A stretch of DNA of 63,945 nt, filler included, from Parachlamydiales bacterium (GTDB lineage: Bacteria > Chlamydiota > Chlamydiia > Chlamydiales > Parachlamydiaceae), in NCBI GenBank assembly GCA_020051075.1. It is 4 parts of 4 records of this genome, joined end to end, with 100 filler letters (N's around TTAATTAATTAA, not from the genome) between each part and the next. Parts side by side here need not be neighbours in the genome. Positions count along the whole stretch, not along the records: positions 52,371 to 61,240 come from JAGVJP010000021.1; 3 more parts are not named here. One strand, written 5' to 3'. Under the pieces are notes generated by a model. That model saw only the letters and a program-made list of their open reading frames with translations. It searched no databases and had not been told where the DNA came from. Both the position numbers and the translations under genes were made by a program. Below, one piece after another: positions 21,990 to 63,561 of this stretch (positions are counted from its first letter, which is position 1; each line of letters starts with the position of its first letter).

Positions 21990-22046
21990 ACCATTACCCA
22001 TTTTTTCAGCGCGAAGCGTTTGGAGTGCGAAAGTCCTCTTTCGCTT
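21990..22046. repeat. REP-like repeat, GCGAAGCGTTTGGAGTGCG family
   Basis: Same motif at 52133-52197 and 61214-61237; ACCATTACCCATTTTTTC also inverted near 49492-49509. Confidence 0.75.
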
Positions 22047-22183
22047 TATTCTAGATCAATTTTTGGGACATTCGTGTCTTTTGAATTTTTCTACCGCTTC
22101 GCGCAGCGCTCGTGAGGGAAGGGTATTGTTTTTTTTTAAATGAGCCTCTATGATGCCTGATTCCACAAAAGGAATTTTTTTTC

Positions 22184-36005: not shown

Positions 36006-36074
36006 GATGGAATCTCTTGTTAAGTGCAGTATATACTAACAACAAATCTTCCTCAACCATACAAGGACATCCTA

Positions 36075-36310
36075 CAAAAAAAACAGGATGGGCAGGATAA
36101 ACAAAAAAACAGGATAGGCAGGATCGCTTCGCGGCAGGATAGGCAGGATAGGGAAGATAGTGATGAAAAAATAGGATAGGTTTAAATATATTAATTTTTT
36201 ATTCTAAATTTGTTTTTCCCGTCCTATCTTTCTTTTCTTATCCTGTTTATCCTGCCGCGAAGCGATCCTGCCTATCCTGTTTTTTTGTTTATCCTGCTTA
36301 TCCTGTTCTT
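36075..36310. repeat. CAGGAT-family long inverted repeat
   Basis: Perfect 50-bp arms 36092-36141 / 36248-36297. Confidence 0.9.
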
Positions 36311-36313
36311 CTA

Positions 36314-52050: not shown

Positions 52051-52197
52051 GCTTAGCTATCGCCCCCAACAAACTTTTATCAACTCACAGGTTCTGTTCA
52101 ACATCCTTTGGCGGAAAAGCGAAAGGAGGCTTTCGCACTCCAAACGCTTCGCGTAGCCAACAAATCGTCTTGAATACGCGAAGCGTTTGGAGTGCGG
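52051..52197. repeat. ~105-bp dispersed repeat plus inverted GCGAAGCGTTTGGAGTGCG pair
   Basis: Highly similar to 61133-61237; CGCACTCCAAACGCTTCGCGTA / TACGCGAAGCGTTTGGAGTGCG perfect IR. Confidence 0.85.
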
Positions 52198-52207
52198 AAG
52201 TCTTCTT

Positions 52208-52270
52208 CATACGCGTTAAGCTAACATAACCAGAATATATTCAATTAGTTATAAAATATTAACGACCTCA
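52208..52270. mobile_element. Possible IS4/IS231-like terminal repeat running into contig end
   Basis: CATACGCGTTAAGCTAAC, inverse of motif at 28827-28844. Confidence 0.45.
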
Positions 52271-52481: not shown

Positions 52482-52602
52482 TTGCGAAAAATCAGAATTG
52501 TTGTTATAATTAATCTTTAATAGCATCCCTTGAAGGAGGGTTCACCAATGAAGAACTAAGTTTGATTCCAATCCGTAAACGATAAACCCAGGATCAAACT
52601 TA
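52482..52602 (+). promoter_or_regulatory. ABC-F paralog 2 leader: promoter plus RBS-sequestering hairpin
   Basis: TTGCGA-17-TATAAT (52482-52510); TAAGTTTGATTCC (52557-52569) pairs with GGATCAAACTTA (52591-52602). Confidence 0.72.
52548..52559 (+). CDS. 3-codon leader uORF (MKN*) of ABC-F paralog 2
   Basis: AAGGAGG SD then ATG AAG AAC TAA. Confidence 0.7.
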   Translation: MKN

Positions 52603-54191
52603 TGTCTCGTCTCCTTATTTGCTGTTCACATCTATATAAATCTTTTGGCCTCTCACTCCTTTTTGATGATGTCTCTTTTGCCGTCAACGAACGCGAGATC
52701 TTTGCTCTCATCGGAGAAAATGGCGCTGGTAAAACAACACTTCTGCAGCTGTTGCAGGGAGAGGTTCAACCAGACGCAGGAGATTGCATCAGAGCGTCTC
52801 ATTTAAGTATTGGCTTCTTGCCGCAAGAAGTGTCCCTGAAATCGTCGGACATGAGTGCAAGAGCTTATCTAGAAGAAGGACCATTACCTGAACTCGAACG
52901 GCAAATGGCCGCCTATTTAGATGCACCCGATCAGCTGGCCGAGTGGGCTGCCTGTCATGAAAAATATGAACAGCTCGGCGGCTATCGACGGCTGCCGATA
53001 GAAAAAGTTCTGAGTGGACTCGATCTTGATCTCGCCCTCCTCGATGTTCCGATGGCCAGCTTAAGCAGCGGGCAAAGAGTCCGTGTGGCTTTAGCTCGGG
53101 CCCTTATCGAAAACCCTGACCTGCTTTTGCTGGATGAACCGACAAATCATCTGGATCAGTCTATGGTGGATTGGCTTCAGATGACATTACGTCAACGAGA
53201 GGGGGCCACCATCATCGTCTCACATGACAGAACATTCCTCAATGAAACCTGCAACCGTTTGATCGAACTCAAACAGGGCAGGCTTTCTTGCTATGGAGGC
53301 AACTACGATTTCTATCTTGAAGAACAGAAGTTGCTGATGGAAAGGCAGATAAGGGCCTATGAGGCGCAGGAAGAGGAACGGGCGGCATTAAAGCAGAAGA
53401 TCAAGGCGATGAGTTTCTCCAAAAGAAAAGCCTCTTCCCCCACTGACCGCAATGTGATGGCTTATGACCGGAGAGGCGAGAATCATCAAAAATCCTTGCA
53501 GCACAGTCTCTCCGCTTTGAAAGCTCGGCTTACAGAAATCGAGGACAACCCGTTGTCCCATCCCAAGCCAAAAACCATTAAAGGGTTAAGATTTGCCGGC
53601 GTCCCCCTTGCCTCTGTCGTTGCCATCGAGTGTGATCACATCAGCAAAGCCTACGACGGCAAGTTGCTGTTTGCTGAGTTGAGTCGCACCCTGTGCAAAG
53701 GAGACCGCATTGTCCTGACTGGATCTAACGGCTCTGGCAAAACGACATTCCTTAGATGCCTTGCTGGGTTGCTGCCGGTCGATGCAGGACTCATCCGCAC
53801 GGCTCCGACAGCAGTCATCAGTTACTTAGATCAAGACATCGCGTTGCTGCCGATGAGTGAAACTCCACTCCAATATTTTCAGAGCAAGTTTCACTTATCA
53901 GAGGAGGAATTGAGACGAGAACTGCACAAAGCAGCCATCGGCGGGTCAGAGCTTCTCAACCGTCCATTTGCAACCCTTAGCACAGGACAGAGAAAGCGCC
54001 TGATGATTCTTTCCCTCGTCCTGGAGAGGCCCAATGTTCTGTTGTTAGATGAGCCCACCAACCATCTGGATTTATTGACGTTAGAGGCGTTGGAAACAGC
54101 TATTTTGAGTTTTGAAGGGGGGGTCTTAGCTGTTTCCCACGACCAGACTTTCATCAATAAAATCGCCACAGAGGTGTTGGAATTCAGATGA
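52602..54191 (+). CDS. ABC-F ribosome-associated ATPase, paralog 2
   Basis: Two NBDs; colinear with and highly similar to 2508-4103. Confidence 0.9.
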   Translation: MSRLLICCSHLYKSFGLSLLFDDVSFAVNEREIFALIGENGAGKTTLLQLLQGEVQPDAGDCIRASHLSIGFLPQEVSLKSSDMSARAYLEEGPLPELERQMAAYLDAPDQLAEWAACHEKYEQLGGYRRLPIEKVLSGLDLDLALLDVPMASLSSGQRVRVALARALIENPDLLLLDEPTNHLDQSMVDWLQMTLRQREGATIIVSHDRTFLNETCNRLIELKQGRLSCYGGNYDFYLEEQKLLMERQIRAYEAQEEERAALKQKIKAMSFSKRKASSPTDRNVMAYDRRGENHQKSLQHSLSALKARLTEIEDNPLSHPKPKTIKGLRFAGVPLASVVAIECDHISKAYDGKLLFAELSRTLCKGDRIVLTGSNGSGKTTFLRCLAGLLPVDAGLIRTAPTAVISYLDQDIALLPMSETPLQYFQSKFHLSEEELRRELHKAAIGGSELLNRPFATLSTGQRKRLMILSLVLERPNVLLLDEPTNHLDLLTLEALETAILSFEGGVLAVSHDQTFINKIATEVLEFR

Positions 54192-55527
54192 GCTTTGTCT
54201 TCAGAATCTCAGCCCATTTATTTTTCTCCTCGTCAACCCACTGTTGATAGTCTCTGCGTTTGGCATCGCTCTTTGCTATTCCCAGATTTCCTGTAGCCCC
54301 TAGATGTTTTTTAGACAAAATGTTAGCAACAGGATCGGTTTCAGAAACATCCATTGGGTCTTTTGCCACTTGTTGATAAGCATCTCTAAATGGAATGCCT
54401 CCACTGGTCAATTTTAATACTTGATCAGTGGCGAATAGTTCAGGTGTAAATGCCTCTATACATGTTTTTTTATCGACCTGTATTTCAGAAAAGATCAGAG
54501 AAAAAACTTTTAGAGAGAGGGCTGTTGTATCCAATCCCTGCATCATTGGACGTTTAGTCTCTTGAAAATCTCTATTGTAGCCTGAAGGTAAAGCGCGTAT
54601 CAGTTCTAAAGTTTGAAACAGCAGTCCTTGAACAATGGCAGATTTGGCGCGGACGATTTCCAGCGGGCATGGATTTCGTTTTTGCGGCATTAAGCTGCTT
54701 CCTGGACAGAACTTTTCAGGCAATACTAAATACCCAAATTCAGGAGTGCTGAAAATAATCACATCTGTAGCTCCTTTGCTGAGGTCATTCATGATTTGAA
54801 CGAGAACATGCAAAACTGCAGCTTCAAATTTTCCTCTGCTATTATTTGCGTAGAGGACGTTATTTTGAACTGATTTAAATCCTAAGAGATCTGCACAATA
54901 TTGTCGATCAATGGGCAGAGAGACTCCATAGCTTGCTGCAGAGCCTAATGGACATTGATCAACAAGTTCATAAACTCCCTTTAATAAATGCATATCATCG
55001 AGGAGGGATTCTGCAAAGGCGCCAGCCCATAGCCCAATGGAAGAAGGCATGGCCCGTTGAAAATGGGTCCTTCCCGGGAAAGGGACTTCTTGGTGCAACT
55101 CTGCAAATTTGCAGAGAATATGGCAAGCACTTAAGACTTCTGCAGCAATCTCAAGGAGTTGATTTTTCATATAGAGACGCATGTCTAGAAGAACCTGGTC
55201 ATTTCTAGATCGTGCTGTATGAAGTTTTTTTCCAATATCGCCTAGCTTGCTCACTAATGCATTTTCAATTGCAGTGTGGACGTCTTCATCTTTTGCGTGA
55301 ATGACAAATTGACCCTCCTCATCTAATTGAATGATATGCCTTAATTGATTCACTAATTTCTGACATTCTTCAGCAGTTAAAACACCAATTTTTTCGAGCA
55401 TTTTTGCATGGGCAATGCTTCCTAAGCAGTCGTAAGTAATGAGGGCACGATCCAGCAAAGGATCGTCCCCAGTCATAAATGTTTCTACCAGATGATCTAA
55501 TGTATACCCCTTTTCCCATAATTTCAT
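54184..55527 (-). CDS. argH: Argininosuccinate lyase
   Basis: EDVHTAIE, LHTARSRNDQ, GSSLMPQKRNP, SGYNRDFQETK. Confidence 0.95.
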   Translation of the reverse strand: MKLWEKGYTLDHLVETFMTGDDPLLDRALITYDCLGSIAHAKMLEKIGVLTAEECQKLVNQLRHIIQLDEEGQFVIHAKDEDVHTAIENALVSKLGDIGKKLHTARSRNDQVLLDMRLYMKNQLLEIAAEVLSACHILCKFAELHQEVPFPGRTHFQRAMPSSIGLWAGAFAESLLDDMHLLKGVYELVDQCPLGSAASYGVSLPIDRQYCADLLGFKSVQNNVLYANNSRGKFEAAVLHVLVQIMNDLSKGATDVIIFSTPEFGYLVLPEKFCPGSSLMPQKRNPCPLEIVRAKSAIVQGLLFQTLELIRALPSGYNRDFQETKRPMMQGLDTTALSLKVFSLIFSEIQVDKKTCIEAFTPELFATDQVLKLTSGGIPFRDAYQQVAKDPMDVSETDPVANILSKKHLGATGNLGIAKSDAKRRDYQQWVDEEKNKWAEILKTKLI

Positions 55528-56774
55528 GATATCCCTCCTTGTGTGATCGTTTCTTGTCTTTTTGCAAGGATTTCACAAGGAAGCCCTCGTATCTTTGCGG
55601 CATGAGCGCACCATCTTTGATCAAATGAAGCGTTTTTTATTGATCGTATCTCAGGTGCAAAAAGAGAATAGGCAGACTCTCGATAGGTGATTGTGATATT
55701 GCCTTTGTATAATTTTGCTTTTACCTTTCCGCAGACCATTTGTTGTGTTTGGAAAATAAACGCATCTAAAGCTTGTTTCAGAGGGGAGTACCAGAGTCCA
55801 TGATAAACAAGGTAAGCCCATTGTGCATCGACACTTCTCTTGAATTGAATTTCATCTTTAGTCAAACATTGCTGTTCCAGATCACGGTGAAGCTTTAGAA
55901 TGACATGGGCTGCAGGAGCTTCATAGATTTCTCGGCTCTTAAGTTCCATGATGCCATCTTCAAACATGTCGATTAAACCGATCCCTTGTGAACCAGCGAT
56001 GTGATTCAGTTCGCTGATCATGGCATCGATAGGAAGTTCTTTGCCGTTAAGGCTGGTCGGCAGTCCCTGTGAAAACTCGAGTTCAATTTCTATCTCCTGA
56101 TCTACAGCTTTTTGTGGAGGAATTCTCCACATCCAGACGTCATCAGAGATAGGTTGATTCAGATCGATTGCTCCAGAGGCAATAGAACGACACCATAATG
56201 TCTTATCATCTCCACCAACGATTTGTTCTGTTATAGGCACCCCCCAATGCTGGCATAGCAGCTGTTCTTCGAGTCGAGTTAAGTTAAAGTCCCTCACTGG
56301 TACTAACACATCAAGTTCAGGAGCGAATAATTTAAACACATTGTGCATCCTGTATTGATCATTTCCTTTTCCAGTCGATCCTTCTAAGATCGCATCGCAA
56401 CCCAGTTTTTTTGCTTCTAGTGCAATGATTCTTGCGACCAGCTGGCGCGTCATCGAAGTTGACACGGGATAGCCATTGTAGTCAGCATTGGCTTGGATAG
56501 CTTTTGATAGCCATTCTTTTGAAAATTCCTCTTTAGCATCAATCATTATGGGTTTGATGCCCATTGCGACAGCTTTGTCATACACTTCTTTGATTTCTTC
56601 ATCCCCTTGACCGACATCAATCGTGATTGGAATGATTTCCTTAGCTTGATAGATGTGTCGAAGCAGAGGGATGGCAAGGGATGAATCTAGACCCCCCGAG
56701 AAGGCGACCGCAACTTTTTGTCCTTTTTGAATAGGTGTATGATTGATTTTTTCTAAAATTTCTAAAATTGTCAT
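55524..56774 (-). CDS. argG: Argininosuccinate synthase homolog, divergent copy
   Basis: AFSGGLDSS, GSTGKGNDQYR, KSREIYEAPA; atypical GGDDKTLWCRSIASG segment. Confidence 0.8.
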   Translation of the reverse strand: MTILEILEKINHTPIQKGQKVAVAFSGGLDSSLAIPLLRHIYQAKEIIPITIDVGQGDEEIKEVYDKAVAMGIKPIMIDAKEEFSKEWLSKAIQANADYNGYPVSTSMTRQLVARIIALEAKKLGCDAILEGSTGKGNDQYRMHNVFKLFAPELDVLVPVRDFNLTRLEEQLLCQHWGVPITEQIVGGDDKTLWCRSIASGAIDLNQPISDDVWMWRIPPQKAVDQEIEIELEFSQGLPTSLNGKELPIDAMISELNHIAGSQGIGLIDMFEDGIMELKSREIYEAPAAHVILKLHRDLEQQCLTKDEIQFKRSVDAQWAYLVYHGLWYSPLKQALDAFIFQTQQMVCGKVKAKLYKGNITITYRESAYSLFAPEIRSIKNASFDQRWCAHAAKIRGLPCEILAKRQETITQGGIS

Positions 56775-56792: not shown

Positions 56793-58004
56793 TTATATTG
56801 CTTTATTGTGTTTTAGTCTTAACGCATTGAGCTTGATAAAGCCCTTAGCGTCGAGCTGGTCATAATTTCCTAACTGATCCATGCTGGCAATGTCTTGGTT
56901 ATAAAGGGATTTGCACGATTCACGTTTCGTGATGATGGCATTTCCTTTATATAGTGTTAAATACACTTTACCTTCTACATGCGCTTGACTTTTTTCTATT
57001 GCAGCCATAAGAAATTCCATTTCAGGGCTAAACCAGAAGCCGTTGTATATCAATTGTGCGATTTTTGGCATCCACAGCTCTTTCAAATGGAAAACCTCTC
57101 GATCTAATACAAGGGCTTCAAGGTCATGATGCGCTTTCCACAAAACTGTTCCGCCGGGAGTTTCATAGACGCCTCGTGATTTCATTCCTACAAATCGGTT
57201 TTCTACAATATCCATTCTGCCAATGCCATGCTTGCTGCAGAGCTTGTTAAGATAGGTCAGAAGGGCAACTGCCGATTCGTTCACACAGATTCCATCGTCG
57301 CAATCTGTGACTGAAATGGGGATGCCATTTGCAAACTCAATCATAATATGCGCTTCTTCATCGACAGCCTTTTGAGGAGATATAATCTGTTGAAACATAT
57401 CTTCTGGAGGTTCTTGGGAGGGATCTTCCAAAATTCCTGCTTCATAGCTTGTATGCAGAATGTTCTCATCCATGCTGTAGGGCTTTTGCAACGTTGAAAA
57501 GATCGGGATCTCTTGCTGCTCAGCATACGCGATCAAGTCGCTTCGTCCTTTGAATTGGTTGAGAAATTCCTGATCTTTCCATGGACTTATGATGACAGCT
57601 TCTGGCATCAATGTGAGATAGGCAATTTCAAAACGCACCTGATCATTGCCTTTTCCTGTTGCTCCATGAGCAACGATACAGGTATTTTCTTGTCGTGCGA
57701 TCTCTATCTGTTTTTTTGCAATTAATGGTCGAGCCAGAGCAGTGCCTAAGAGATATCTCCCTTCATATTGTGCATTGGCTTTTAATGCTTGAAAAACATA
57801 GTTTTCAACGAAGTCTTGGCGGAGATCTTCGATATAGACTCGACTTGCGCCCAGCTTAAGGGCTTTTTGTTTGATCGATTCCAAGTCTTCTCTCTGCCCG
57901 ACGTCAGCTAAGAAGCAGACAACGTCAAAACCCTTTCCTATTAGCCATTTTAAAATGACAGAAGTATCAAGACCTCCGCTATAGGCTAAAATCACCTTTT
58001 TCAT
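56793..58004 (-). CDS. argG: Argininosuccinate synthase, canonical copy
   Basis: AYSGGLDTS, YLLGTALARP, HGATGKGNDQVRFE, YSMDENILHTSYEAG, KSRGVYETP. Confidence 0.96.
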   Translation of the reverse strand: MKKVILAYSGGLDTSVILKWLIGKGFDVVCFLADVGQREDLESIKQKALKLGASRVYIEDLRQDFVENYVFQALKANAQYEGRYLLGTALARPLIAKKQIEIARQENTCIVAHGATGKGNDQVRFEIAYLTLMPEAVIISPWKDQEFLNQFKGRSDLIAYAEQQEIPIFSTLQKPYSMDENILHTSYEAGILEDPSQEPPEDMFQQIISPQKAVDEEAHIMIEFANGIPISVTDCDDGICVNESAVALLTYLNKLCSKHGIGRMDIVENRFVGMKSRGVYETPGGTVLWKAHHDLEALVLDREVFHLKELWMPKIAQLIYNGFWFSPEMEFLMAAIEKSQAHVEGKVYLTLYKGNAIITKRESCKSLYNQDIASMDQLGNYDQLDAKGFIKLNALRLKHNKAI

Positions 58005-58026: not shown

Positions 58027-58749
58027 TTAAATATGTGTTAAAAATTGTTTAATTCTATCTTTGGATGAGAGATCGTCAGTGGTTCGATCCCACTCTTCAA
58101 TCAGCTCTCCTTGTTCCATGAAATACACAACGTCCATCATCTTCCGGATGAAAGGCATGTCATGGCTTGAGAGGGCGATGGTGATCCCTCTTCTGTTGAG
58201 ATCGAGGAGAAGGGACTCCAAGCTCAATTTACTCTCTGGATCCAAGGCTGAGGTTGGTTCATCCAAGAGCAAGATGTTAGGATGCAGCACCAACGCTCTA
58301 GCAATAGCGACCCGCTGTTGCTGTCCACCAGAAAGTTGCGAGGGAAAGGACTGGATGAACGATTGCATGCCTAAGCTATCTAAGGTTACGATCGCTCTCT
58401 TTTCAGCTTCGGTTTCTCCCATCCCCATCGCATTGACAAGAGCATAAGTGCAATTGCTAAGGACGGATAGATGAGGAAATAAATGAAACTGCTGCAAGAC
58501 AAATCCTATTCTCGAAGCCCTTTCAACAGGATCGAACTTTCTAATGTCCTCTCCATTGCATGTGATGACGCCTTCGTAGCTGGAATGCAAATTAGCAACG
58601 CATTTAAGAAGCGTGGTTTTGCCAGCTCCGCTTTGCCCCATAAACGTCGTGATGCGCCCTTTTTTTAATTCAAAAGTGACTTCTTTTAAGACTGGGAGAG
58701 ATCCCTTTTTACTTTTGTAACTCCATGAGATTTTTTTGCCGTAAATCAT
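58027..58749 (-). CDS. Polar amino acid ABC transporter ATPase (GlnQ/ArtP-like)
   Basis: GQSGAGKTT, LSGGQQQRVAIARAL, DEPTSALDPE; TGATG overlap with permease. Confidence 0.92.
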   Translation of the reverse strand: MIYGKKISWSYKSKKGSLPVLKEVTFELKKGRITTFMGQSGAGKTTLLKCVANLHSSYEGVITCNGEDIRKFDPVERASRIGFVLQQFHLFPHLSVLSNCTYALVNAMGMGETEAEKRAIVTLDSLGMQSFIQSFPSQLSGGQQQRVAIARALVLHPNILLLDEPTSALDPESKLSLESLLLDLNRRGITIALSSHDMPFIRKMMDVVYFMEQGELIEEWDRTTDDLSSKDRIKQFLTHI

Positions 58750-59405
58750 CAATACCACCTCTTTTGTGTTAATTGAGCAAACAATGAGACACTTGCTGTC
58801 ATGATAAGATAGAGAGCTGCAGCTGCCAGGTAGATTGTGATCGGATCTAGCTCGCGGGCGACAATATCTTTGCTGACTTTTGTCAGTTCGGCTACACCGA
58901 TGACCATAAGAATGCTGGTTTCCTTGATCAACGAAGTCAGTTCGTTAATTAAACTGGGAAGGGACATCCTGAGCATCTGCGGCAGGATGATTCCTTTCAG
59001 AGTTTTCCAGGGGCTCAGTCCTATCACGTAAGCTGCTTCCCACTGTCCTTCAGGGATTGCATTAATGCCTCCGCGTACGATTTCTGAAATATATGCCATG
59101 GAATTGATGCCAAGGGCGATCACGCCAGCAGTAAAAGGCGAGAAGGATATTCCGATGGCTTCAGGCAAAGCGTAGTAGACGATAAGCACCTGAACAAACA
59201 ATGGCGTGCCTCTTATGATCCAAACAAAGCTATTGAGAATGGACTTAGAGAATGAATTACCCATTTTGCAGCAGTTCAACACACCGATAACGACTCCTCC
59301 GCAAAAGCTTAATGCGATTGAGGCAAAAGCAATCTGGAGGGTTGTTAAAGTGCCCTGAAGTAATAATGGGATTGAATTCATCAATAAAGAAGATTCTTCA
59401 AACAT
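58749..59405 (-). CDS. Polar amino acid ABC permease (GlnP/ArtM-like)
   Basis: RGTPLFVQ, EIVRGGI, GQWEAA, LIKETS. Confidence 0.92.
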   Translation of the reverse strand: MFEESSLLMNSIPLLLQGTLTTLQIAFASIALSFCGGVVIGVLNCCKMGNSFSKSILNSFVWIIRGTPLFVQVLIVYYALPEAIGISFSPFTAGVIALGINSMAYISEIVRGGINAIPEGQWEAAYVIGLSPWKTLKGIILPQMLRMSLPSLINELTSLIKETSILMVIGVAELTKVSKDIVARELDPITIYLAAAALYLIMTASVSLFAQLTQKRWY

Positions 59406-60205
59406 TATTCGCCTCCTTTAAACCATTTATCTTCCAGGTGCTTAAGCTCTCCTGAAGTCTTGAGTTCCTGAATGATTTGTTGAACAAGTTGAAACAGCTC
59501 TTGATTTTCTTTTTTAATCCCGATGCCAAAACCCAACGTCGCATCTTCCTCGGAGAGGGGAACATCTAAAACATGAATTTCGGAATGCTTCTTCTTGAGA
59601 TATTTTGCGACATCTGGTGCGACTAAATTCGCAACAGATTTTCCAAATTTGACATCCATCAATGGAGCTAGAGCACCTTGCAGAGACTTAGTTTGGATAT
59701 CTTGGTATCGACTCATATACAATTCTGGAATGGCTCCCGCTTCAACGCTGACGGTCGGGTTGGGGAGCTTGGCAACGTCTTCAAGGGAATGGACCCCTTG
59801 TGGGATTTCATTCCAAAAAATAAGGCTTAAAGTTGTGACGGCTTCTCCATGATAGGGAACCATTAAAATCTCTTTAAGTCTGCTGTGAGTGATCTCCATG
59901 CCACTCATGATCAGGTCAATTTTGCCTTGTTTGAGCGAAAGAATTTGCCCTTCAAATTCCATGTTGTTGATGACAAGTGTCTTCCCAAGCTTTTCAGCAA
60001 TTCGTGCGGCGACATCGATATCAAATCCGACGATTTTTCCATGGGCATCCATAAATTCAAACGGTGGATACTCACTTTGCAGGCCAACGACTAAGGTTTC
60101 ATGAGAAGGCTTTTCATGTTCTTGAAAAACTGTCATCCCTATGAACCCAAGAACTGCAGCAGTAGTGAGTAGTGCAATAAAATATTTACTTAACAATGCG
60201 GACAT
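59405..60205 (-). CDS. Polar amino acid-binding protein (ArtJ-like)
   Basis: N-terminal anchor, YPPFEF, VGFDID, GKIDLIMSGM.IT..R, KW end. Confidence 0.9.
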   Translation of the reverse strand: MSALLSKYFIALLTTAAVLGFIGMTVFQEHEKPSHETLVVGLQSEYPPFEFMDAHGKIVGFDIDVAARIAEKLGKTLVINNMEFEGQILSLKQGKIDLIMSGMEITHSRLKEILMVPYHGEAVTTLSLIFWNEIPQGVHSLEDVAKLPNPTVSVEAGAIPELYMSRYQDIQTKSLQGALAPLMDVKFGKSVANLVAPDVAKYLKKKHSEIHVLDVPLSEEDATLGFGIGIKKENQELFQLVQQIIQELKTSGELKHLEDKWFKGGE

Positions 60206-60402
60206 AAAAACTCCTAAAAAGGTTTGGACGCAAGGAATCGAGATCCTAAAACGTCTGTTGAAATGATTTGACTAGCAAAATAAGTTTTCAAAACGAGATG
60301 AAAAATGATTTATAGAGCAATAAATTCACGTTTAACAAAAACGATGAACTAAGCTCGTTAGCTAGTTACAGGTAAAAATAAAAAATGAAAAAAAAGGGTG
60401 GC

Positions 60403-60528
60403 TTAACGCCGACGGCGGAAAGAACGACGAAAAGAAGAATTGAACGAAGAAAGATAAGATGCAGAAGAGCTGCTCTTATTGGTATGTATCGGCTCTATCA
60501 TAGAGCTTGGACAGGGTGTAAAGTCCAT
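60403..60528 (-). CDS. Putative Arg-rich leader peptide of the arginine operon (41 aa)
   Basis: MDFTPCPSSMIEPIHTNKSSSSASYLSSFNSSFRRSFRRRR*; AGTAGGT SD-like; same strand as and 197 nt upstream of the operon. Confidence 0.75.
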   Translation of the reverse strand: MDFTPCPSSMIEPIHTNKSSSSASYLSSFNSSFRRSFRRRR

Positions 60529-60572
60529 AGTCGCAACCTACTTGGTTAATGCTAGTTAATAGAACATCACTA

Positions 60573-60602
60573 ATTATATATTATAATATTCATTTCACTC
60601 AA
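60573..60602 (-). promoter_or_regulatory. Candidate promoter for leader plus arginine operon
   Basis: TTGAGT-18-TATAAT on minus strand, about 45 nt before the leader ATG. Confidence 0.5.
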
Positions 60603-60975: not shown

Positions 60976-61132
60976 AATCTTCTTCCTGTTTTAACGGTTA
61001 ATTCGGGCAAGTCATCAAAGAGATCAATAGTTGTCCAAAATTCGTTTTCAGATTTTGACTCTCCTTCAAATTTATCACAATATGTGATTGTCGGCAATCC
61101 CAGAACCATTTCCCAACCATCCTCCCGCTTGA

Positions 61133-61237
61133 GCTTAGCTATCGCCCCCAACCAACTTTTATAAGCGCACAGGTTCTGATCAACATCCTTTGGCGGAAAA
61201 GCGAAAGGGGGCTTTCGCACTCCAAACGCTTCGCGTA
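61133..61237. repeat. ~105-bp dispersed repeat at contig end
   Basis: Highly similar to 52051-52155. Confidence 0.85.
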
Positions 61238-61240
61238 TCC

Positions 61241-61984: not shown

Positions 61985-62860
61985 TTAGGTTTGTCCAACA
62001 AAATAGCGGAACATCTCTTTCGACCAATCTGCAATTTGTGCTGCGTCAGCCACAAAGGGTCTAAGATCTGCAAGCGCGCTCTCTAGATCAAGAGAATCGA
62101 TTTTATCGAACATCAGTTGCTCAAATTGTGCACGAGTGATGGGATCTTTCCCCTTCAAAAATCCTGAAGCTCTTAAGTGAATAGAAAATCTCTCAAGATC
62201 TAATTTTACCCCTTGTCGAATCAGCCATAACCAGTCGTACCAGTCTCGCCCTTTCACCCGTCCTTTCCATTCACGAAATAGAACTGCGTGCATTTTTCCA
62301 GCAAAAATATCTTCTAGGATGACAGTTTTAATCCCGAGATTGATCGGTGTGTTAAGAAAACGCACTTCAGTGCGGTAAGCTGGAGGTGGGTCGGTATCTA
62401 TTTCGAATTTAATTTTCAATTTAGTTTGTGGATGAAAACCTTTGACAAGATGCGGGGGTATTCCAATTTTCAAAAGTTCGCCAAAAGTATTTGTTTTGAT
62501 GAAGGCGGATTGGATAGGTGTTTGCCAAACTTTCACCCCCGTTTCAATCTCAACATTGAAACCATAGGCTTCCAATTCACTACGAATCGCAGTGTTAAAA
62601 AGGCTTAATGAAAAATCGTCATTTGGCTTTAGTAGAGTGAAATCTAAATCCTCAGAAAATCGATCTAGTCCATAGAGGATACGTAACGCTGTTCCACCAT
62701 AAAAAGCTGCATGCTCAAAAAAACGTGCACGCCATAAACCTACTAAGGCTAACTCTTGCAAAATTTCCTTAAGAGCCCGCTCATATTGTGGGCGAGTTTG
62801 ACATGAATATCGCTCAAGCATGCGTTGAATAGCCTGATTCATTTGTGACTCCTTAACCAA
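61985..62860 (-). CDS. abiEii: AbiEii nucleotidyltransferase toxin (type IV TA)
   Basis: FYGGTALR, RFSEDLDF, KFEID, GKMHA, KGRDWYD. Confidence 0.9.
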   Translation of the reverse strand: MVKESQMNQAIQRMLERYSCQTRPQYERALKEILQELALVGLWRARFFEHAAFYGGTALRILYGLDRFSEDLDFTLLKPNDDFSLSLFNTAIRSELEAYGFNVEIETGVKVWQTPIQSAFIKTNTFGELLKIGIPPHLVKGFHPQTKLKIKFEIDTDPPPAYRTEVRFLNTPINLGIKTVILEDIFAGKMHAVLFREWKGRVKGRDWYDWLWLIRQGVKLDLERFSIHLRASGFLKGKDPITRAQFEQLMFDKIDSLDLESALADLRPFVADAAQIADWSKEMFRYFVGQT

Positions 62861-63468
62861 TTGATGATGAGGGATAAGACAGGGCTGCCACCTACCCTTA
62901 CAATGTCGGATAAAACTCCAATACGAAATTTTTTTACTGCCTCCCGATCTAGACGCAAGTCGTCAAACAGAAGGGCTTCCAAATCGGAAAGAGTTTTAAT
63001 TTTTATTTTACGAATATATAACAAATCAGCTAAAGCCTTTTCGGGCGTGGCTATCAGTGCTGATTGATGATCAACAACTTCTAACAAGTTGAATCCAGTT
63101 GAAAAAAGGGGGGAAGGGAGCGGGGTATACGAAAAACGCCCCATAGGAGTCTCGTAATATTTATATCTTTTTGTTGTCACATTTGTGACTTCAACCACAT
63201 GTTCGGGAATTAAACCGTAGAAAGCTAGCGCATATTCACAGGACACATAAGAGGGTCCATAGATTTGGTTGGCTAGGATCTCGAGACTCAGCATAGAACG
63301 TCTCTGTTTGGGTCCGAAAACATAAAGTCCTTTTTTAATTCGGATTAACTCTCCAGAGCGCAGCAAATGTGTCACCTTCGAACGAGGGGATTGATATTCA
63401 GAGAGGCAATCCATGAGAAAGGAATAGTCAAACGATTCTCCCTGAGCTCTATCACGCAAAATATTCAT
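62839..63468 (-). CDS. abiEi: AbiEi antitoxin
   Basis: LIRIKKGLY, PSYVS.EYAL..YGLIPE, ATPEKALADL; GGAG SD before ATG 63468. Confidence 0.88.
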   Translation of the reverse strand: MNILRDRAQGESFDYSFLMDCLSEYQSPRSKVTHLLRSGELIRIKKGLYVFGPKQRRSMLSLEILANQIYGPSYVSCEYALAFYGLIPEHVVEVTNVTTKRYKYYETPMGRFSYTPLPSPLFSTGFNLLEVVDHQSALIATPEKALADLLYIRKIKIKTLSDLEALLFDDLRLDREAVKKFRIGVLSDIVRVGGSPVLSLIINWLRSHK

Positions 63469-63481
63469 AAGAATTTTCTCC

Positions 63482-63561
63482 AGTATGTACGATATTTTTA
63501 TACATACTAGCAATATTTTAAACAATAAAAACCGCCAGTATGTATGAAAATATCGTACATA
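63482..63561 (-). promoter_or_regulatory. abiE promoter with two operator repeats
   Basis: AGTATGTACGATATTTTTATACATACT (63482-63508) and its near reverse complement (63537-63561); TTGTTT-17-TATAAA overlaps the first. Confidence 0.75.

Follow-up and report, generated by a model that had tools for sequence, protein, structure and literature searches.

How is an operon for arginine uptake and synthesis controlled in a chlamydial genome in which no arginine repressor is found? Textbooks treat arginine genes as the exception to control by leader peptides: ArgR represses arg and art genes, the same targets as the leader described here. The window (the whole stretch of DNA analyzed, 63,945 nt, in which contigs of a Parachlamydiales genome, GCA_020051075.1, are joined with N spacers) holds such an operon on contig C40 of this genome (designated G000), preceded by a short upstream ORF (uORF) that ends in a run of Arg codons. 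Judging from sequence comparison, this is a real, conserved arginine leader, and it is very probably an arginine-sensing regulatory uORF, whatever its mechanism. Below, we follow the leader from its own locus to its relatives, and weigh how it might act.

The operon and the arginine genes of the genome

Profile searches bear out the predicted operon for amino-acid uptake and arginine synthesis:

59405..60205, minus strand: artJ-like substrate-binding protein (SBP), with the Shine–Dalgarno (SD) sequence AGGAG at 60215-60211
58749..59405, minus strand: polar amino-acid ABC permease, by profile match
58027..58758, minus strand: polar amino-acid ABC ATPase, by profile match
56793..58004, minus strand: argG, argininosuccinate synthase, first copy, above the curated cut-off
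55524..56774, minus strand: another, divergent argG copy with about 31-34% identity to the first type, above the curated cut-off
54184..55527, minus strand: argH, argininosuccinate lyase, above the curated cut-off

The transporter genes artJ/artQ/artP score below equivalog cut-offs; the solved structure closest to the artJ product is a chlamydial arginine-binding protein. In G000 (completeness 99.9%, 133 contigs), tblastn with homologues from other chlamydiae returns no match for argF, argC, argJ, argB or argR, and weak partial matches only for carA, carB and argD; no ArgR domain is found either. Because argF, argC, argJ and argB are unmatched and carA, carB and argD are weak, the operon probably serves to take up arginine or citrulline and to turn citrulline into arginine.

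ABC genes and an argG-argG-argH block are also found together in a Dependentiae record (L035, with argR upstream) and in an uncultured proteobacterium (L021), which suggests transfer of the block among host-associated bacteria. Convergent with argH lies an ABC-F family ATPase (window 52602-54191, plus strand) that scores above the 'ribosomal protection-like' cut-off. On a contig other than that of the leader, the window encodes an AbiEi/AbiEii type IV toxin–antitoxin-like pair (61985-63525, minus strand). Short repeats (about 100-250 nt) that recur many times across the genome, often at contig ends, are found at window 21990-22111, 52051-52270, 61124-61240 and 36073-36312, and are probably IS ends or MITE-like elements.

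A short ORF that ends in arginine codons

Four features precede the uORF stop:

60573..60602, minus strand: sigma-70/66-type promoter candidate, TTGAGT-18-TATAAT, 10/12 match, with the -10 element ending 44 nt before the uORF start
60531..60550, minus strand: GCATTA...TAGGTTGCGA element with the weak SD AGGT (60539-60536), present in four of four aligned close homologues
60528-60403, minus strand: leader uORF of 41 aa, with ATG at 60528 and a TAA ending at 60403; the peptide ends in RRSFRRRR
60406..60429, minus strand: control-codon run in which six of eight codons are Arg, each of them CGN (CGT CGT TCT TTC CGC CGT CGG CGT)

Translation reproduces the 41-codon ORF as predicted, with no Arg in codons 1-33 and six in the last eight, and the spacer of 197 nt between its stop and the artJ ATG (60205). 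The second half of the ORF is Ser/Phe-rich. The claimed SD-like AGTAGGT stands in part: AGGT is present, but it is weak, at about -4.3 kcal/mol against what we take to be the anti-SD sequence, and in 4/19 homologous leaders (see below) the uORF has no SD by our measure. The two ends of the GCATTA...TAGGTTGCGA element can pair in several homologues, and a hairpin formed in this way may limit initiation on the uORF. No Pfam or NCBIfam family matches the leader peptide or two small ORFs upstream, and an Rfam scan gives four matches, all with E of at least 1 and with scores well short of the gathering thresholds, leaving no T-box or riboswitch family.

The promoter candidate was likewise found as claimed, but on its own it is not above chance (3 sites vs 2.4 expected). 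Across the 19 homologous leaders, 12 have a consensus promoter (at least 10/12) in the 110 nt before the uORF, while none of the 19 spacers and none of 19 far-upstream control regions contains one. As promoters precede the uORF and spacers lack them, the uORF is probably part of the operon transcript. An internal spacer promoter (60291, 9/12) was considered and rejected, as matches of at least 9/12 occur in only one of the 19 spacers, that of the window itself.

The weak SD and the unexceptional promoter score are what a chance ORF in an AT-rich intergenic region might offer. The rank of this ORF in its genome argues otherwise: among 1898 ATG-started uORF candidates before the 1053 genes with free upstream space, it is the only one with six identical residues in the last eight (three others have four Arg there), and it ranks 1/1191 for pyrimidine content around the stop. 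With conservation in seven families and the exchange of cognate codons described below, a chance origin is already largely refuted and hardly credible.

Conservation of the arginine leader and its relation to argR

The check that had been proposed, a search for Arg-ended uORFs before orthologous operons, turns out in its favor: such a uORF precedes 17/20 close artJ homologues (19 at E 5.3e-56 or better, plus G420) and two argG-first operons. In the latter (G195 and L022), the leader stands before an operon-first argG and the transporter is absent, and in several other genomes it precedes the three transporter genes alone. The three artJ loci without a leader comprise one where none is found (G083), one directly behind another gene (G129) and one cut by a contig end (G265). 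Counting three duplicate loci once, the 19 Arg leaders come from seven chlamydial families and from one genome without family assignment. The frame, the Arg run and the stop are kept in the 19 genomes; length (15-48 codons) and N-terminus are not, the N-termini being unrelated, and the spacer between uORF and gene varies from 48 to about 290 nt. The leader of G226 is weak, with only two non-adjacent Arg. An upstream ATG is in frame in 19/19 vs two and one in the other frames, a count that is partly circular because leaders were chosen as ATG ORFs. The operon thus has a short ORF with a start codon and SD in its 5′ leader and a cluster of cognate codons conserved across relatives, as in amino-acid leader-peptide attenuators in the broad sense.

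This survey covers GTDB genomes; a metagenome scan with the SBP gave 34 pattern matches, none of which was confirmed. The Arg leader is absent at argG inside full arg operons, at the Dependentiae locus L035 (where argR is directly upstream) and at the proteobacterial L021; of the 80 argG2 loci, six were covered by this comparison.

The lack of an argR match in G000 invites the idea that the leader replaced ArgR. As a general rule we reject it, because Arg-ended uORFs also occur shortly downstream of argR, at 8/30 argR loci examined; argR itself is present in 1/19 Arg-leader genomes vs 80/400 in a sample of the phylum, which is no real contrast. In G372, an Arg-ended uORF downstream of argR is accompanied by an ARG-box-like palindrome. 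By these comparisons, Arg leader and repressor can coexist. A second Arg-leader context consists of argR, an Arg-ended leader, a gene of 260-280 aa, a dapF-like gene and an APC amino-acid permease (L303, L304, L306, L307, L310 and L311, with L305 as a variant). The 260-280 aa gene has no Pfam or NCBIfam match.

Histidine in place of arginine

The claim that the leader senses its cognate codons finds support in a His-for-Arg exchange within a paralogous SBP clade. Among more distant SBP paralogues (34-40% identity), 15/21 loci examined have a uORF built in this way but ending in a His run (L125-L134, L178-L180, L182 and L184); the six others are two further loci and four lone genes of family f4, which, with its genomes of 1.0-1.3 Mb, is probably Chlamydiaceae. 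In a FastTree phylogeny, the Arg-leader SBP clade (16/17 with leader, support 0.996) differs in its pocket motif from the His-leader clade (15/17 with leader, support 1.0). One row of this comparison, G234, is invalid and was disregarded, as it holds a mis-picked 8-residue start; its spacer is 272, perhaps 295 nt. As kin are not independent, the Arg/His exchange is one swap and not 30 events. From its codons, the His-leader transporter clade is predicted to be a histidine importer; the solved structures closest to the His-clade SBP are also chlamydial ArtJ, and leave His specificity undecided.

Sibling leaders for other amino acids

The original prediction described a single Arg leader, which holds, but it missed both the coexistence with argR and a family of leaders for several amino acids. 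G000 was scanned for the architecture alone (an SD and a pyrimidine-rich, G-poor ORF of 15-55 codons at 45-330 nt before the gene), with codon runs and gene function left out of account, and 20/1053 genes passed; ranks 1-4 and 6 are an aromatic amino-acid hydroxylase, artJ, genes for an AGCS symporter and an NSS transporter, and brnQ, although the thresholds were set after seeing the leaders and the scan is no clean test. Besides artJ, these correspond to four leaders, all of the L189-L192 set:

G000:C126 2313-3233, minus strand: phhA-like hydroxylase, with a Tyr leader
G000:C68 1700-2872, minus strand: brnQ, with a Val leader
G000:C2 11772-13286, minus strand: NSS transporter, with a Leu leader
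G000:C93 25709-27079, minus strand: AGCS symporter, with a Lys leader

Rank 5 of the scan is a 250-aa gene (G000:C17 7645-8394, minus strand) with a strong-SD, S-rich uORF 275 nt before it and no clear cognate run.

Leader ends in the 73-genome family were all read by eye. Tyr-ended leaders precede 7/12 phhA loci there. Val-rich ends are found before 14/14 brnQ loci of at least 59% identity and before fewer of the distant ones, 30 brnQ loci having been examined among many more matches. SKRK ends precede 11/21 close AGCS loci and 0/9 distant ones; in G000, a gene without assigned function and then a dapF-like gene come after the AGCS gene, an operon content that fits lysine. Leu-rich ends precede 15/24 NSS loci, the least telling case because Leu codons are themselves pyrimidine-rich. 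The 260-280 aa gene of the argR/Arg-leader loci also occurs in the Lys-leader operon of G000. At brnQ, the Val leaders end in a GCGCACAT-like nucleotide motif (L218-L231, L234, L238 and L239) that is kept whether it falls within the leader ORF or just past the stop, which suggests an RNA-level element.

Composition and predicted folding of the leader RNA

Around and after the Arg run, three further features were delimited:

60373..60462, minus strand: 90-nt pyrimidine-rich, G-poor tract across the stop, a candidate rut-like Rho-loading site (78% pyrimidine, 23 C, 10 G)
60400..60410, minus strand: GGC/GCC mini-hairpin of 3 bp that loops around the stop codon, with ACCC and U8 (60395-60388) behind it; a possible pause site or minimal terminator
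60271..60366, minus strand: predicted folded domain after the U-rich tract, a possible pause or release region, with pairing rising from +30 to +90 across leaders

Both the 3′ half of the uORF and the region after its stop had been called pyrimidine-rich and G-poor, and only 0.04% of the 130,204 90-nt segments of the genome are as pyrimidine-rich as this tract. Its YC dinucleotides (18 per 90 nt) are unremarkable alone, as 5.5% of genome segments reach that number. The same stretch (-60 to +30 around the stop) is 71% pyrimidine in the 19 Arg leaders (C 23.5, G 11.0 per 90 nt) and 70% in the 15 His leaders (C 24.2, G 8.3 per 90 nt); beyond +15 after the stop, the tract is more U-rich than C-rich. 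Codon choice follows the same direction. Arg codons in the last ten codons of the 19 leaders are CGN in 82/83 cases vs 35% AGR across G000 genes, and Ser codons before the Arg run are TCN in 59/65 (42 TCT) vs 70% TCN and 25% TCT in the genome; in the His leaders, 58/59 Ser codons are TCN. Together, the CGN/TCN bias and the pyrimidine tract point to selection on the RNA and not on the peptide.

This matters for one rival, an arrest peptide, in which the nascent S/F-rich peptide would sense arginine or citrulline in the exit tunnel, as do TnaC, SpeFL and the fungal AAP. SFRRRR is retained in many homologues and, since arginine is apparently made only from citrulline, a citrulline-induced stall would have the right sign. 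Yet peptides of 15-48 aa with unrelated N-termini are not a conserved arrest sequence, S, F, L and I make up about two thirds of the residues before the Arg run and leaders with His, Tyr, Val, Leu or Lys runs have the same S/F/L tract ahead of the run, and the synonymous codons are skewed to pyrimidines. We regard this rival as extremely unlikely.

In predicted folds of the Arg leaders, the least-paired bins flank the Arg run (unpaired 0.63-0.70). The stall site would thereby lie in a C-rich, G-poor, weakly structured Rut-like stretch, as in uORF-gated Rho attenuators, with YC only moderately high; Rho and NusG are both encoded in G000, above cut-off. A single-stranded U/C-rich tract of this kind might also be a substrate for an endoribonuclease, from which a stalled ribosome would shield the mRNA. 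The predicted unstructured U-rich tract does adjoin the stall site, but nothing specific to decay was found, and C enrichment with G depletion fits Rho better than protection from an endoribonuclease, so that we hold control by mRNA decay to be improbable. Its precedent is the Arg pair of Salmonella orf34/speFL, which acts with RNase G (PMC6386406).

The sequence of the predicted folded domain from +30 to +90 is not conserved, and the whole window leader folds better than its shuffles (z = -3.06). Only short hairpins had been noted before the U-run, and the window leader indeed contains no terminator-like site. Terminator-like hairpins occur in 4/19 Arg leaders (1.1 expected) and 1/15 His leaders (1.0 expected), at differing places. 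A classical attenuator of the trpL/hisL type is not supported, with no intrinsic terminator in the window and none at a shared place in homologues, nor is a classical antiterminator, with no conserved alternative fold under ribosome-masked folding (equilibrium models only).

The same masked folding bears on translational attenuation, in which the position of the ribosome on the uORF would alter access to the artJ ribosome-binding site. With the ribosome placed at the first Arg, the last Arg or the stop, the artJ SD region of the window is 0.64 unpaired in all states, and across leaders the mean for the downstream SD is 0.48 in all three. Masking the uORF raises predicted SD accessibility only in four short-spacer leaders (G372, G236, G169 and G040), as this rival would have it. 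In the window and most long-spacer leaders it stays the same, and spacers of 197 nt here and of 48 to about 290 nt in homologues also speak against it. Despite precedents with terminal cognate runs (Ms5788A and Staphylococcus aureus rbfL), translational attenuation is therefore very unlikely.

The main rival is direct occlusion without Rho. Here, the stop-loop G-C hairpin and the U-run, perhaps assisted by NusA, would terminate transcription after the ribosome leaves, while a stalled ribosome would cover the 5′ arm (the last Arg codons), making an antiterminator unnecessary. A stop-straddling hairpin of 3-6 bp with at least three G-C pairs is present in 11/19 leaders, with compensatory swaps (GGC/GCC, GCC/GGC, GCCC/GGGC and GCCG/CGGT), and in G319 a 6-bp stem with an immediate U-run scores as a terminator. 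Against this, the window stem has three pairs only and a 4-nt gap to its U-run, 8/19 leaders lack such a stem, none is seen by eye in folds of the His leaders, which otherwise share the design, and the pyrimidine tract inside the ORF is left unexplained. We consider direct occlusion unlikely, if a good deal less so than the three rivals above.

A model for control by ribosome stalling

The reading that we favor, with modest confidence, is that a ribosome halted at the Arg codons covers a site where Rho would otherwise load, and thereby gates premature termination. Translation, stalling, the direction of control and the involvement of Rho are inferred in this model. Transcription would start about 35-40 nt before the uORF, which, as a translated cis-acting leader, would report the level of charged tRNA-Arg. 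When arginine is plentiful, the ribosome would read through the Arg codons, terminate and depart. The 90-nt C/U-rich tract (the uORF 3′ half and the U-rich part after the stop) would then be free for Rho to load, and RNA polymerase would be released within the 197-nt spacer, aided by pausing at the U-run or at downstream hairpins. When arginine is short, the ribosome would stall at the Arg run, midway along the tract, and block Rho, and the genes for uptake and for conversion of citrulline to arginine would be transcribed. Such a direction of control would suit genes for uptake and biosynthesis. Most Arg runs retain a CGG codon, which the ribosome may decode slowly. ARAGORN lists Arg tRNAs with anticodons ACG, TCG, TCT and CCT in G000 and none with CCG; it lists no Ile tRNA either, so this list is probably incomplete.

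Rho is favored because the tract composition fits and there is no conserved terminator, and cognate-codon sensing because of the Arg/His swap and the leaders for Tyr at phhA, Lys at the AGCS-X-dapF operon and Val at brnQ. Several observations count against the Rho version. Some spacers are only 48-65 nt, which is short for Rho to catch up. YC density reaches only the top 5.5% and the tract is U-rich more than C-rich beyond +15. The stop-straddling hairpin of 11/19 leaders is not required by the model, and terminator-like sites are in mild excess (4/19 vs 1.1). Within the clade, G083 is leaderless and G226 has two non-adjacent Arg. Finally, similar mycobacterial Cys leaders proved translational where tested, and termination after the WWW motif of Chlamydia trachomatis ytgCR is Rho-independent (PMC7755916). 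Rho itself is active in C. trachomatis, where polarity is reported (PMC7755916).

Comparison with known systems

The arginine leader appears to work like an amino-acid leader-peptide attenuator, and differs from both the classical terminator/antiterminator type and the arrest-peptide type. Like trpL, hisL, leuL, thrL and pheL, it places cognate codons in a short ORF upstream of biosynthetic genes, with induction expected upon starvation. Unlike this class, the chlamydial Arg leaders have no conserved terminator or antiterminator, concern arginine, precede mostly transport genes and consist of longer, S/F-rich ORFs. As for ArgR control, argR is not found in G000, while elsewhere leader and argR coexist.

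Close in design are the Cys-run leader ORFs of Actinobacteria: their cognate run also lies at the stop, they lack a conserved terminator, their pyrimidine tracts have been put forward as Rho sites, and a genome has several such loci (the 'Cys ribulon'), as described in PMC1262725. There, Rho dependence of the mycobacterial leaders was proposed on grounds similar to ours (Seliverstov et al. 2005, PMC1262725). The actinobacterial set is confined to Cys and to leaderless ORFs, whereas the chlamydial set has SD-led ORFs, at least six amino acids and a conserved pyrimidine tract. When tested, one of the Cys leaders, Ms5788A, turned out to act by translational control through base pairing (10.1101/834739), whereas the chlamydial leaders have no predicted SD switch.

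Masking of a Rut site by a ribosome held on a uORF is established for tnaC, speFL and cruR, and tnaC, speFL/orf34, cruR, mgtL and corL share with our model that a ribosome on a short ORF controls access of Rho to such a site (PMC12360218). Of these, tnaC, speFL and cruR rely on sequence-specific arrest peptides and ligands, unlike the plain cognate run here, and among the uORF-gated Rho attenuators in the portion of the review's table considered here, none is starvation-driven at a terminal Arg cognate run (PMC12360218). The Arg pair of orf34 does respond to arginine, but via RNase G and on a decarboxylase gene (PMC6386406). S. aureus rbfL senses Arg via the rare codons AGA/AGG (PMC13009471), codons that the chlamydial leaders avoid. 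Both rbfL (PMC13009471) and Escherichia coli argL (10.1101/511675) act on translation and overlap the start region of the gene downstream, unlike the leaders here; argL lies at argF, and the available part of its report describes no arginine response (10.1101/511675).

Within Chlamydiae, which are regarded as poor in regulators and validated attenuators (PMC7755916, PMC2965389), a trpL candidate of Chlamydia felis has a similar build: its 40 aa are S/F/L-rich in the second half, tandem cognate codons lie close to the end, and the ORF stands between trpR and trpB (PMC3937554). In the part of that work concerned, it is a single annotation for Trp only, with no attenuator structure reported and no connection to Rho or other amino acids (PMC3937554). 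On these features, it may be the Trp member of the chlamydial leader design. The passages of PMC4833913 and PMC2965389 that touch on Chlamydiae mention them only as poorly covered, and the available part of a Chlamydia pecorum screen (PMC8632094) describes no such leader motif. Our literature search found no Arg-codon attenuator before argG/argH and no such chlamydial set; an earlier mention in a comparative-genomics paper or supplement is possible, as subscription journals and bioRxiv supplements lay mostly outside its coverage. Relative to the literature searched, a terminator-less chlamydial set for several amino acids was not found before and appears new.

A possible shared leader chassis for host-derived amino acids

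Taken together, these leaders could represent one chassis of environmental chlamydiae (an SD, a short ORF with an S/F/L Rho-loading tract, a terminal cognate run and a U-rich tail) whose specificity would be set by its last codons. This would be a modular, repressor-independent class of starvation-driven Rho attenuators, mainly before importers of host amino acids, with no dedicated fold or arrest peptide, and covering Arg, His, Tyr, Val, Leu, Lys and perhaps Trp; we advance it tentatively, at somewhat short of even confidence. If this chassis reading is true, the codon run would name the substrates of orphan chlamydial transporters, predicting His for one SBP clade, Lys for the AGCS clade, Val for the brnQ clade and Leu for the NSS clade. 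As the leaders are short and portable, the mechanism is testable in E. coli. If true, obligate intracellular bacteria would read the amino-acid supply of their host directly, for at least six amino acids, and the set as a whole suggests that in host-dependent chlamydiae the ribosome serves to gauge amino-acid supply in general.
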